Positions 13,084 through 23,851 of a DNA stretch of 64,000 bases are shown in pieces. The number at the start of each line of letters is the position of its first letter. Position 1 is the stretch's first letter. The DNA comes from a phage, in the sequence record PV874203.1. The stretch is one strand, 5' to 3'. Below the pieces are notes generated by a model, which was not told the DNA's origin, searched no databases, and saw only the letters and a program-made list of their open reading frames with translations. The position numbers and the translations under genes are program-made.

Positions 13084-14775
13084 ATGCATATCAATTACCT
13101 TAGCACAACGAACCTTATCTCTCTCAATCCACTTGTTAAGGAACATCATAGCATATTTCATAACAACAGCACCAGCACATTGCAGGAGAGTGTTAAGTGC
13201 TTTATGAACCATAACCTTACCAGTGGCATCTCGTCTCATTGTAATCTTACGACCATCAACACCAATCAAGTACCCTTGAGCAGCTTTCTCTGTCATACGA
13301 TCAATGAGGATTGCAATACATGGGTTCTCTGCCAAGAAACGTGCTCGCATCACTGAACCTTCGTCAGCCCCACCACCTACAATTGAACCGAGCTTAGCAT
13401 CACCAGCACCATAGTTGAATGCGTAGATAAATGTCTTAGCGTTGTCACGAGTAGGAAGACCAGCAAGTTTCTGGTTGTGGGAGTGTATATCACCTTCAAG
13501 GAGAATATCACGATACATAATAGCAGAAGCTAAACCACGTTCTGCCAGAGCTTTCTTAGCTGGATTGTTTTCTTCTATTGCTTCAGCAAGCATATCCCTA
13601 CACTCTTTAATGAGGTAGTGTGCAAGCATACGCAACTCTAACCCAGAACCATCATACCCCAAGAATACTTCTTTACCAGCGGGTATGTAATATTTGTAAG
13701 CACCTACAGGTTTGTCTTTCTTCCCCGGCTTACCTTTCTCATAAATTACGTTAGTACCTTTTCGTATATAACAACCATCAGGAACAACGTTAGTAATAAC
13801 GAAAGGACGAGAGTGATCATCATCTGAGTTATAGTCAGATTCAAACAAACTGCGACACTCATGACCAAACAAACCACGGGAGGGAATATTAACCACGATA
13901 CGATGTTTGAATCGAAAAGTCGGCGTAGCGCAGCTGTTAGCTTCTGCCGAAAGTTTACCATCTTCGCGCTCCTTTGCTATAAGTCCACTAATAAGACCTA
14001 GCCTGTGAGCCGCTACAACGCGTCTCTTAAGCAAACTTCCGACACTCCCTAGCTCACCCCCTAACCCTTCTTCAAGAGTCTCCTCGAGGTTTGTAGGGGC
14101 TGTAGGCCACTTGTTTGAGGTAGCTAGTGCTATCTTAATCTCATCAAAAGTAATAGGTCTACGTCGGTTAGGATTTAAACCTAAACCAAACACATAAGCC
14201 TTCATGTAGTTCTTAGTTTTAAACCGAAAATGCTTCTCTAAGAACTTTCTAATATCAGCGTCAACCATCTCGGCTGTCTGCTTCTGTTTAGCATTACCTC
14301 GCATCCAAGCTGAATACCATGCTTGGTATGTTCCATACTTTCGCATATCTTTCTTGATTTCAAAAGTATTCCAAGGTTTCTTTGATACATTAAACTCTGG
14401 AGGAAGAAAACCCTCATCCATAAGGGCTTCTTTAACTCGGGCATCTTTCGATGGGTCAAAGGCTACGTACTCTACACAGGTGAATGCTCCACCAATGTCT
14501 TCTCTCTTAAGTCCAACCCTATCACAATAGGCTTGAGGCCACTTCTGTAAAGCTCCAGACTTCTTAAATGGCTTCATATAAGTAGAGCCATCTAATCTCA
14601 TCTTAGGTAAGAGAGGAATCAGTTCTTTGTCAATATTAACAATAATCTCTTTAAGGAGGTGAACATACCACCGAGCATTTCTTCGGTTGAAACTCACTCC
14701 GTGCTTCGCTTGCTTAGAGATTATATCAGCGACAGTCATCTCTGTCAAAAATGGGAGAGCGTCCGGGTTGCTCAC
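13084..14775 (-). CDS. DNA polymerase (family A, T7 gp5-like), exon 1: polymerase domain through motif B, no 3'-5' exonuclease domain
   Basis: Motif A GYDGSGLELRMLAHY, motif B RDNAKTFIYAFNYGAG, and ALNTLLQCAGA segment parallel T7 gp5. Track ORF ends at 13054 after reading 9 codons into the insert. Confidence 0.85.
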
Positions 14776-14791
14776 TTTATACTCCTTTAAA

Positions 14792-15214
14792 TTATTGGTA
14801 AAGTAAATCTGTAAATGCTTGGTTATCTTCTATCACATCTAACACGGTAGCTTCATAGCTGTAAGCCCTAACCGCCCCGTTAACAACTATCCGAGGAGTA
14901 GGTGGAGGTGGTGCATGGTTAGTCCTAGCTTCACGAGGTTGCTCTCGTACTAAATGAGCCACAACCCTTTGGTTAGCGACTTCTTCTCTTTCTCGGATAG
15001 CTCTCTGAATGTAAGCTAACTTCATACCCCAAGCTTCTTCAAACTCTTGAGGGTGCTTATCACTGATTACTACATACTGACGCTCAGGGATACCAGATCG
15101 AATCTCTGATAATAGCTCATGGAACAAATCCAGTTCATGTTCAGTGAGATTCATTTCAATATCATCCCACTTGAGAACTAAGAAACGGTTTTGATGTCTA
15201 GTCGGTAATGGCAT
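14792..15214 (-). CDS. Hypothetical protein
   Basis: 140-aa ORF upstream of the polymerase gene. Confidence 0.45.
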   Translation of the reverse strand: MPLPTRHQNRFLVLKWDDIEMNLTEHELDLFHELLSEIRSGIPERQYVVISDKHPQEFEEAWGMKLAYIQRAIREREEVANQRVVAHLVREQPREARTNHAPPPPTPRIVVNGAVRAYSYEATVLDVIEDNQAFTDLLYQ

Positions 15215-15371
15215 TCTACTCCACCTCTACTCTAACGTAAGTTCTCTCGCCCACATCATCTTTCCAGACCCATGCCTTGGCATCTTCTTCAGACTTAAAA
15301 ACTTTCACAACGATGTATCCACCTTCCCATTCATCACCGCTCTGTCCTACGTAAACATATTCTTTCATTAT

Positions 15372-15656
15372 TTAACCTTTTGGGAATGGCATTAAAGATT
15401 CCATAGCATTTTTGATATCACTATTGATTCGTGCATCTCGATAAGAGATAAACTTACCTTTGCTATCACGGAACGTCACATGAGTTCTGGCTGTTTCGTA
15501 AGGAAGTAATCTAACACTGGTTGGGATAACATCAATCTCCACATAGAACTTGTCAATAGTCTTACTCTTAGCTAACAGATAAGACCAAGTACGTGGTTTC
15601 TGATCTGGGCGATTTGGGTATGTGTCTCGAATCTGAACCATAGCTAACTTATTCAT
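15372..15656 (-). CDS. Hypothetical protein, paralog of adjacent ORF
   Basis: Shares ...DGKFISY...E(N/S)L(I/M)PFPKG C-terminal motif with 15658..15909. Confidence 0.5.
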   Translation of the reverse strand: MNKLAMVQIRDTYPNRPDQKPRTWSYLLAKSKTIDKFYVEIDVIPTSVRLLPYETARTHVTFRDSKGKFISYRDARINSDIKNAMESLMPFPKG

Positions 15657-21939: not shown

Positions 21940-21951
21940 TCTTCTTCCTTA

Positions 21952-23295
21952 TTAACGAATGTTTTGTGAATTTAACAGATGGTCTAATTCCCCACCAACC
22001 TGAGGCTCTAATACTTCAGGGTTGTTGTCAACAAATCTATCAGCGAGATTGCGGCTGACGGTCTCAGCTAACTCACCATGAGAAGGGATATCAAGATCAC
22101 CGACAGTGGGACTCTGAGCAGATGCTTCATCAGTCCATATAACACGAGCAGCTTGGTCAATACCACCAACAGCAAAACCCTGACCAGAGAACTGGTGACG
22201 GCTAGCAGTCAAACCATTTGACAGACCACTAGAACGTCTAGACAACCACCGATCAAACGAATCGCTGGTAACACCAAGAGCCTCTTCAAAAGATGTTCTA
22301 CGAGTAGGGCTTTCTCTTCGTGCCTCTTGTGCTCGACGTCTTGCAGGTACTGCAAACAAACCTTCAATAGCATTGTGTCGGTTAGGTTCTTCTTCCCGAC
22401 CAAGCAGATCACCACCCGTATTGGTTGTTAAGTCTGTCAACCCTTCAGACCAATACGCATGAACCCGATCAGAGCCGTTAAGACTCGACATTAACTGAAT
22501 CTCTTCATAAGGTATACCAAAGAATCGACTCATATCTCGGTCAACACAATACTGAGCACTTGTTGTATCCTCAATAAGAGCAACCTGACCCCGTTCGTTG
22601 ACCAGATGACTGATCGGTTGAGGTGTAGGAAGGTATCGAGTTTGGGCCATGTATTGATGTGCAACTGCTGGAGATGAAAATCTCAATACCTGAGAATTAG
22701 GCCATTTCTTGTGAACATATCTGATTTCACGACTAGAAACAACAACAGGGCAAGGGGCGGTCATCGCCAAATATCCATGAGAAGTCATGAATAGGTTGTC
22801 AAGAGTCATCGCACCACGGCACATCATAGGGAAATTATCCATGACTTCTTCAATAGAAGTAGGATAGTTAAACATGAATTGGATTCGGGTTCCATTCCAC
22901 TGAAACTCAATAATATCAGTGAATGTTAGTCGAGAATTACCAGCATAGGGTTCGTCTGTAGCTTCAGCAAGAAGAGATGCATGCTCAATACCTTGTGACT
23001 CAAGCCACTCTTTCACATTGCTCTCAATCTCACGCCCAAGATCTTGCCACTGTTCGTGACGGATGAAAGTGTTTTGTGTTCTTGGTGTTTGCCCTCTGAC
23101 GATAAAGATATCAATGTCATGAGGTGCTATGTTATTAAGAACAGCATCACGAACAGCCCCACCAGTAATGATGGGACAGATACCGTCTGGAACCAAGTTG
23201 TTGTTAATCAACTGTTCAATGAAATGACGACCAACAGTGATATCGGGTTGTTGAGCAACCTTATCTTCAATTTGGTTAATCGGGATAACAATCAT
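21952..23295 (-). CDS. Pol-beta superfamily nucleotidyltransferase (CCA-adding enzyme / poly(A) polymerase head-domain-like)
   Basis: GGAVRD ... DIDIF motif near the N-terminus. Start set at internal ATG 23295 (TAAAATG junction with upstream gene); the ORF could extend to 23352. Confidence 0.5.
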   Translation of the reverse strand: MIVIPINQIEDKVAQQPDITVGRHFIEQLINNNLVPDGICPIITGGAVRDAVLNNIAPHDIDIFIVRGQTPRTQNTFIRHEQWQDLGREIESNVKEWLESQGIEHASLLAEATDEPYAGNSRLTFTDIIEFQWNGTRIQFMFNYPTSIEEVMDNFPMMCRGAMTLDNLFMTSHGYLAMTAPCPVVVSSREIRYVHKKWPNSQVLRFSSPAVAHQYMAQTRYLPTPQPISHLVNERGQVALIEDTTSAQYCVDRDMSRFFGIPYEEIQLMSSLNGSDRVHAYWSEGLTDLTTNTGGDLLGREEEPNRHNAIEGLFAVPARRRAQEARRESPTRRTSFEEALGVTSDSFDRWLSRRSSGLSNGLTASRHQFSGQGFAVGGIDQAARVIWTDEASAQSPTVGDLDIPSHGELAETVSRNLADRFVDNNPEVLEPQVGGELDHLLNSQNIR

Positions 23296-23296
23296 T

Positions 23297-23851
23297 TTAC
23301 ATTTTCCAATATAATGAAGGTGGGTCGTAAGGGTCAAATCCTGTGAGTTCACACAAGTATTTATAAACCTTAACAGTTAAGTTAACGTCCTGTTCACAGT
23401 AAGTAAACATATCTTCAGTGAAAGCATCCCATGCTTCCTCTTGCTCACCGTAATCTCCTTTAAGTTCCTCTAAGAACTCACCCCATTGCTTCAAACCATG
23501 ACCTCTTGGGCCATGTCTGGGGTCGCCTTTCGGATACTCAGGACTGTCACCAATACGGTCAGGTTTAAGATATCGACTAAGACACAAGGTGTCGAAGACG
23601 TTAAAACGATAGTCGATCAGATTGGGATACATCTTCTTCAGAGCACAAAGGTCGAAGTCGATAATATTATGACCTACGAGCACATCAGCTTCTGTAAGTT
23701 TACGAATCCCATCTTCAATTTGGTGAGGCCGATAGCCCCACCTTTCACCAGTTTCAACATCGAAGATATAAATACACCATACTTTAGTTATGTCGTCGTA
23801 TAGTGCATTACTCTCGATATCAAATGCAAACACTTTCTTTTTCTTTACCAC
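23297..23851 (-). CDS. Stand-alone 3'-5' exonuclease (DnaQ-like, proofreading domain of a split family A polymerase)
   Basis: Exo I FDIES, Exo [10 protein letters not shown], Exo III YCEQDV, in a 184-aa protein directly downstream of the primase-helicase. Confidence 0.75.

Follow-up and report, generated by a model that had tools for sequence, protein, structure and literature searches.

We report that in a stretch of phage DNA from sequence record PV874203.1 (64,000 nucleotides, hereafter the window), the proofreading exonuclease and the polymerase domain of a family A DNA polymerase are encoded by two genes lying 8.5 kb apart. We consider it likely that these genes are the two halves of a replicative polymerase of the T7 gp5 type, split at the domain boundary, that the exonuclease docks on the polymerase and proofreads, and that the polymerase gene carries a mobile group I intron of subgroup IA2. 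The window is the genome of a Kuravirus, a phiEco32-like coliphage. An earlier note on this DNA had treated the split as a possible discovery; separate exonuclease and polymerase genes are already known (PMC3517423, PMC9965538), and the split as such is nothing new. The phiEco32 RefSeq record states that gp53 "lacks 5'-3' and 3'-5' exonuclease domains" and lists gp74, which contains a 3'-5' exonuclease domain, as "DNA polymerase exonuclease subunit". In 2012, polymerase and proofreading exonuclease were reported to be encoded separately in every LUZ24-group phage (PMC3517423); that article credits the split in phiEco32 to the 2008 phiEco32 paper. The split was stated for all Kuravirus-like phages in 2023 (PMC9965538).

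The minus strand carries every gene between 11 and 26 kb of the window. The stretch from 11.0 to 25.7 kb shares 91-95% DNA identity with phiEco32-like podophages (Kuravirus, Gordonclarkvirinae) and matches 109 phage records, 51 of which cover at least 80% of its length. This breadth also bears on a possible artefact: the split might in principle stem from a wrong assembly, a frameshift error, or a decaying pseudogene. We regard this idea as practically refuted. No evidence for it was found, the same layout recurs in the kuravirus-like annotations inspected (phiEco32, IMEP8), 8.5 kb of intact genes lie between the two parts, and the catalytic residues are conserved.

The exonuclease, a homolog of phiEco32 gp74, is encoded at 23297..23851 (minus strand) by an open reading frame (ORF) of 184 amino acids with a GTG start. 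It matches Pfam DNA_pol_A_exo1 (PF01612) with 35.5 bits (E=1.1e-8), above the cut-off of 23.6. In a phmmer search of the PDB, T7 DNA polymerase chains were its sole matches and no DnaQ chain appeared; residues 9-163 align to residues 3-182 of T7 gp5 (E=1.3e-10), with motifs Exo I, Exo II, and Exo III in register. An AlphaFold2 model (42 homologs) reached a predicted local distance difference test score of 94.6. In a Foldseek comparison of this model with the PDB, the top 27 matches were T7 gp5 only (E 7e-11 to 7e-9), followed by the polymerase exonuclease domains of apicoplast PolA and DpoZ at about 1e-5, whereas the stand-alone DEDD nucleases NrnC and diDNase scored 3e-5 to 2e-4. The protein thus fits a polymerase proofreading domain far better than it fits an unrelated DEDD family, and the outcome that the earlier note had named as refuting its reading did not occur. 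It is not covalently joined to a polymerase domain, unlike the exonuclease of canonical PolA, and represents the known split variant.

The catalytic residues were compared among 42 stand-alone homologs with identities down to 34%, and all of them are invariant: D11 and E13 of Exo I (DxE), aligned to D5/E7 of T7, N62 and D67 of Exo II (Nx2-3(F/Y)D, here HNIIDFD), and Y151 and D155 of Exo III (YxxxD, here YCEQD). The third motif has Tyr and not the His of the DnaQ/epsilon type (Hx4D). Judged by these motifs, the enzyme is of the DEDDy (PolA) type and not of the DEDDh (DnaQ) type. The earlier note had described a stand-alone 184-amino-acid 3'-5' exonuclease with Exo I, II, and III at this locus, which the Pfam and T7 gp5 matches and the invariant motifs bear out; its term "DnaQ-like" is appropriate at the superfamily level but not for the type, since Exo III has Tyr where DnaQ has His. 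It had offered three options: a two-subunit polymerase, loss of proofreading, and relocation of proofreading. A proofreading part of a T7-type PolA with a gene of its own is supported and agrees with the existing annotation as an exonuclease subunit. Loss of proofreading is not, because the DEDDy residues are invariant across the stand-alone homologs, which also indicates that the active site is under selection. For related reasons, we find it very improbable that the exonuclease has been repurposed, for instance for host DNA degradation or nucleotide salvage, leaving the polymerase to replicate without proofreading. Such a role would suit a gene that sits among genes of nucleotide metabolism (dCTP deaminase, ThyX, and others), but the protein has acquired no added domains, has kept the DEDDy residues and the T7-like fold, and occupies a position inherited from a fused gene, as set out below; replication of a 75-kb phage genome without proofreading also seems unlikely.

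The polymerase half is represented by an ORF of 573 amino acids (13054-14775, minus strand) that matches Pfam DNA_pol_A (PF00476) with 51.4 bits against a cut-off of 34.3. It starts with the GTG at 14775, and an AAGGAG ribosome-binding site lies just upstream. The best PDB match is again T7 gp5, both by phmmer (E=1.2e-32), where only the polymerase part of T7 gp5 is covered (residues about 289-698), and by Foldseek (E=1.6e-26). This upholds the view of the earlier note that the ORF begins after the place where an exonuclease domain would be expected. A degenerate exonuclease domain at the N-terminus was considered and rejected; the N-terminus aligns just past the exonuclease in a fused relative, and to the T7 thumb.

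Motif A (DGSGLELR; pattern DxSxxELR) and motif B (RDNAKTFIYAFNYG; pattern RxxxKxxxFxxxYG) are present in the ORF, and motif C (HDE), here MHDEGQ, is intact only once an intron is removed. The ORF ends in VIDMH-KLHCACKSW and a stop codon, while the 614-amino-acid phiEco32 polymerase reads VIDMH-DEGQF at that point. It stops nine codons into a group I intron, and exon 1 ends at 13084, the coordinate with which the region of the earlier note had started. Exon 1 (13084..14775) comprises 564 codons, which encode thumb, palm, and fingers and include motifs A and B; it ends in VIDMH and is colinear with phiEco32 gp53 up to His564. Exon 2 (12324..12476, minus strand) comprises 50 codons and the stop codon and runs from DEGQF to NWMHTH, including the catalytic Asp-Glu of motif C. 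When joined, the exons encode 614 amino acids, colinear with the phiEco32 polymerase over its full length and 99% identical to the polymerase of Shigella phage SGF2. The 573-amino-acid ORF is therefore exon 1 only and not the whole enzyme, for which the earlier note, having overlooked the intron, had taken it.

Because the intron's final three bases read AUG, in frame with exon 2, ORF finders call a "protein" of 51 amino acids there (ORF 12324-12479, minus strand). In the GenBank records of ECBP2, 1-6af, and PAS59, this piece is annotated as a separate DNA polymerase or hypothetical coding sequence (CDS). If splicing occurs, the separate CDS is an artefact of the gene model. A gene model with two exons is a useful correction for the polymerase, whose pieces stand in several GenBank records as hypothetical proteins or as proteins of their own.

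Alignment with phiEco32 and IMEP8, which are uninterrupted at this point, delimits an insertion of 607 nucleotides (12477..13083, minus strand) between the CAU (His) and GAU GAG (Asp-Glu) codons of motif C. Exon 1 ends in CAU, the intron begins with AAAC and ends in AAAUG, with a terminal G, and GAU opens exon 2. The last base of exon 1, a U, pairs with G in P1 (AUGCAU/GUGCAU), where GUGCAU is the internal guide sequence, and a P10 of 7 base pairs forms with exon 2 (CUUCAUU/GAUGAGG). Helices were extracted by means of conserved anchors, and their pairing was checked by script. P1, P3, P4, P5, P7, P7.1, P7.2, P8, P9, and P10 form in four intron lineages, with compensatory changes, and P9 is closed by a GNRA loop. 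P1, P3, P7.2, P8, P9, and P10 differ in sequence between the versions of kuraviruses, T7-like phages, Vp_R1, and RCIP0053 and yet keep their pairing, and P4 and P7 hardly vary. P1 and P10 follow the differing exon codons of the host genes, and the guide sequences of the intron have adapted to each of these genes. The element P7.1 (UCC-loop-GGA), GUA, and P7.2 hairpin, a trait of subgroup IA2, was found in all seven intron sequences; a G-U-A joining P7.1 and P7.2 is the criterion for this subgroup (PMC3428280). For P6/P6a, no convincing definition of the pairing around the intron ORF was found. A MAFFT alignment of the introns with their ORFs removed was left unused; it misaligned P7.2, P3', and P8 between lineages. 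The intron is expected to be self-splicing.

Within the intron, an ORF at 12597..12992 (minus strand), whose stop codon directly precedes the 5' strand of P7, encodes a protein of 131 amino acids with a Pfam HNH_3 match of 45.1 bits. The protein is 59% identical to, and colinear with, the 131-amino-acid HNH protein of the intron in T7-like phage 13a, and by its HNH motif, its place inside an intron at the homing site, and this similarity it is assigned as an I-TslI-like HNH homing endonuclease. Intron and HNH ORF together share 65-67% DNA identity with the element that present-day T7-like phages carry in gene 5, at the identical site between His and Asp-Glu. Phage 13a is one of these, and its gene 5 has a spliced-join annotation. 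Vibrio phage Vp_R1 and Klebsiella phage RCIP0053 carry the same element at the same motif C site. Fourteen phage records hold the element at 80% identity or more; several of them list the pieces as individual CDSs, named "DNA polymerase" or hypothetical.

Its homologs include the ΦI and W31 introns of T7-like phages, which belong to subgroup IA2, lie at the position of residue 881 of E. coli Pol I, and have an endonuclease ORF in P6a (PMC3428280). Their self-splicing was reported by Bonocora & Shub in 2004, according to the title listed in PMC3428280. The intron of the window shares with these introns, which encode the HNH endonuclease I-TslI, the insertion site between His and Asp-Glu of motif C (PMC3428280), and with those of 13a and other present-day T7-like phages the P7.1-GUA-P7.2 element and the HNH ORF. 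It differs from the T7-like introns in its host gene, here the exonuclease-less polymerase of a Kuravirus, in an extended P5 and a shortened P7.2, and in P1, which is AUGCAU/GUGCAU in the window and GUGCAU/GUGCAC in the T7-like introns, P1 and P10 having covaried with the exon codons. In the Kuravirus literature searched, no paper mentions an intron. The finding adds a Kuravirus polymerase gene to the hosts of a known intron and does not reveal a new kind of element. The same HNH-encoding IA2 intron occupies the identical site in Kuravirus/Suseptimavirus, in T7-like Autographiviridae, in Vp_R1, and in RCIP0053, and it neatly illustrates the passage of a homing element between polymerases that are distantly related.

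Polymerase genes of related phages are interrupted elsewhere as well. In kuravirus-like polymerases P0065-P0068 and from P0132 onward, the gene is cut after about residue 454, and at this place a kuravirus-like metagenomic contig of 77 kb (L011) has an ORF-less group I intron at 4354-4617 (Rfam 102.2 bits, E=2e-27). The site differs from that of the window, and the polymerase family therefore hosts at least two different introns. The IMG/VR marine contigs L032, L039, and L053 carry fused exonuclease-polymerase genes interrupted after about 433-493 amino acids by insertions of about 650 nucleotides. These insertions encode proteins of 147-173 amino acids with an HNH/endonuclease VII-like CxxC...DHDH...HxxCN motif, as judged by eye, and would represent another class of homing endonuclease in the same gene family.

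The exonuclease gene directly follows that of the primase-helicase (23845..25635, minus strand; 596 amino acids), a T7 gp4-like protein with a Pfam DnaB_C match (E=1e-10) and a weak Toprim_2 match; its counterpart phiEco32 gp75 is annotated as DNA primase/helicase. The GTG of the exonuclease gene overlaps the TAA of the primase-helicase ORF, and the overlap of 7 nucleotides reads CCGTGGTAAAG. From the end of the exonuclease ORF to the polymerase GTG at 14775, the distance is 8,521 nucleotides, occupied by 21 ORFs. The earlier note had placed the exonuclease directly after the primase-helicase and about 8.5 kb and 20 unrelated genes away from the polymerase. Adjacency, distance, and gene number agree with our counts, and none of the intervening ORFs is a part of a polymerase. 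Several of them nevertheless serve nucleotide metabolism or replication and are in that sense not unrelated, namely a nucleotidyltransferase, a dCTP deaminase, a thioredoxin, ThyX, a ligase domain Ia, and PhoH. An HNH endonuclease and a Dps/ferritin-like protein are encoded there as well.

A natural fusion of the two halves is found in a metagenomic protein of 618 amino acids (P0168), the gene of which lies downstream of primase-helicase and ligase genes. Its residues 5-154 align to residues 10-168 of the exonuclease (36% identity, E=8e-31) and its residues 168-618 to residues 12-614 of the kuravirus polymerase; the split therefore sits exactly at the boundary between exonuclease and polymerase domains. 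The 51 close homologs of the exonuclease are, without exception, stand-alone proteins with lengths of 105-212 amino acids. Among the best 120 polymerase homologs listed, which include LUZ24-like "DNA polymerase part II" proteins, nearly all have no Pfam exonuclease domain, the exceptions being P0166 and P0168, both fused. In several cases, exonuclease and polymerase homologs lie on contigs of identical length (81643, 86560, 100903, 112127, 20510). A wider profile search with the exonuclease matched 5,219 cluster representatives, and of the best 150 of these, 81 are fused (more than 540 amino acids, with the match at the N-terminus), 43 have at most 260 amino acids, and 26 are intermediate.

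Fused genes also predominate at the 80 IMG/VR loci that hold the nearest relatives of the exonuclease. A fused exonuclease-polymerase ORF is present at about 60 of these, and nearly all fused loci with enough upstream sequence show a primase-helicase match upstream on the same strand. Clearly separate genes were seen at nine loci, either adjacent or, in one 97-kb contig (L017), 9.6 kb apart, the gap in this contig holding dCTP deaminase-, ThyX-, PhoH-, and Dps-like ORFs as in the window. Pseudomonas phage Ka1 (LUZ24-like) has the order helicase, overlapping exonuclease gene (175 amino acids, 35% identity to that of the window), 2.3 kb of intervening sequence, and polymerase. A rough neighbor-joining tree with Fitch parsimony gave a fused root and at least four fissions and united the kuravirus, Vp_R1, and L017 exonucleases in one clade; the tree has no support values, and confidence in it is accordingly low. 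In the simplest history, the order helicase and then fused exonuclease-polymerase is ancestral, the fused gene was cut at the domain linker, and the gap was later filled by other genes.

Following this history, the exonuclease half would have kept the place of the fused gene, after the primase-helicase and overlapping its stop codon, and the polymerase half would have come to lie 8.5 kb downstream with its own ribosome-binding site, separated by genes of nucleotide metabolism and small genes. Most likely, the exonuclease would dock non-covalently on the polymerase and proofread 3' ends, in the manner of epsilon on Pol III alpha. Independently of the split, the polymerase mRNA would have to self-splice and so join His564 to Asp565-Glu566, yielding the active 614-amino-acid enzyme; at the predicted junction, ...GAUAUGCAU would be ligated to GAUGAGGGU... 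(CAU to GAU).

Several points weigh against this model. We infer both the physical complex of exonuclease and polymerase and the editing of polymerase errors, and splicing of the window's own intron is a prediction. The adjacency of helicase and exonuclease genes is explained by ancestry and is therefore no evidence of function. Moreover, the intron matches the Rfam family Intron_gpI (RF00028) in its 3' half only, with 27.2 bits (E=1.2e-4), and does not reach the gathering score of 50, probably because the ORF of 396 nucleotides (stop codon included) splits the intron core. A part of the Rfam alignment falls inside the 3' end of the HNH ORF and is regarded as wrong.

An unlikely alternative to docking is a free nuclease acting in trans, which would remove mismatched 3' ends distributively or serve in repair or recombination without a stable polymerase complex. 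It would be compatible with the distance of 8.5 kb and the lack of translational coupling between the two genes, and with a split that arose several times with spacings of 0 to 9.6 kb, which suggests that the two need no tight stoichiometric coupling. Against it stand a split exactly at the domain boundary of fused relatives, an exonuclease that by sequence as well as by fold remains closest to the proofreading domains of polymerases, and the co-occurrence of stand-alone exonucleases with exonuclease-less polymerases. We therefore favor an exonuclease that docks on the polymerase. A more speculative thought, to which we give little credence, is that the exonuclease could be recruited to the replisome via the helicase and be shared by the leading- and lagging-strand polymerases, in which case the ratio of exonuclease to polymerase, and with it fidelity, could be set independently of the polymerase level. 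This idea arises because the exonuclease would be made by translational coupling to the primase-helicase and not to the polymerase.

Other features of the region touch on replication. A phage thioredoxin of 91 amino acids is encoded at 18832-19107 (minus strand), between the exonuclease and polymerase genes. The processivity factor of T7 gp5 is the host thioredoxin. Residues 63-135 of the kuravirus polymerase align weakly to T7 residues 289-357, which we take to overlap the thioredoxin-binding loop. For the phage-encoded thioredoxin, the role of processivity factor has been proposed (PMC7881722). A protein of 107 amino acids (17837-18160, minus strand), annotated as "DNA ligase" in relatives, contains only the N-terminal domain Ia of an NAD-dependent ligase (Pfam Nlig-Ia, 121 bits), without an adenylation domain. 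As listed with a GTG start, the ORF at 21952-23352 (minus strand) has 466 amino acids and shares 56 nucleotides with the exonuclease gene; judging from phiEco32 gp73, translation probably begins at the ATG at 23295, one base past the exonuclease stop codon, which would give 447 amino acids. The only match of its product is a weak one to a nucleotidyltransferase (PolyA_pol head), with a score under the Pfam cut-off.

Additional mobile elements are present in the window. A free-standing HNH endonuclease gene (19909-20403, minus strand; 164 amino acids) has been inserted precisely where the Dps-like gene meets its neighbor. In phiEco32 and IMEP8, which lack the HNH gene, the two flanking genes overlap. 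The HNH product is only distantly related to the intron-encoded HNH protein (28% identity). A second group I intron at 52734-53006 (plus strand; RF00028, 74.6 bits, above the gathering score) interrupts the putative large terminase gene (52530-54893, plus strand), with an N-terminal ORF of 69 amino acids upstream and a Terminase_6N/6C ORF downstream. An ORF for a GIY-YIG endonuclease (52979-53554, 191 amino acids) starts inside the 3' end of this intron match. The window has one tRNA gene (39590-39662, minus strand; Rfam tRNA, 71.9 bits).

Among known systems, phiEco32 is closest. Its gp74 and gp53 are orthologous to the two genes of the window and have the same order and spacing in a region of 91% DNA identity, but gp53 is uninterrupted, whereas the polymerase gene of the window holds the 607-nucleotide intron, and the window has the extra HNH gene at 19909-20403. 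The Pseudomonas phages of the LUZ24 group ("DNA polymerase part I / part II") likewise have a stand-alone exonuclease overlapping the helicase end and an exonuclease-less polymerase downstream, the latter with 39-42% identity to that of the window over its full length; they differ in that only about 2.3 kb lie between the parts. The LUZ24 polymerase gene also carries an intron (PMC3517423). In the rough tree, the LUZ24-type exonuclease falls outside the kuravirus clade and may therefore reflect an independent fission. A search of the literature for split DNA polymerases returned unrelated systems only, such as those of chimalliviruses and engineered Pfu, and the searchable literature held no experimental test of proofreading in trans by a split family A polymerase, although no search was aimed at this question.

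T7 gp5 is the nearest relative of both halves in structure and sequence and shares with the window the order of helicase and then polymerase as well as motifs A, B, and C, but it unites exonuclease and polymerase in one chain of 704 amino acids. Two insertions, of about 115 and 60 amino acids, distinguish the kuravirus polymerase from the fused P0168. The epsilon subunit (DnaQ) of E. coli Pol III, which is bound to alpha, is alike in principle, with proofreading provided by a separately encoded subunit of the DEDD superfamily. The pairing is of another family, however: epsilon is a DEDDh enzyme working with a family C polymerase, whereas the window combines a DEDDy exonuclease with a polymerase of family A.

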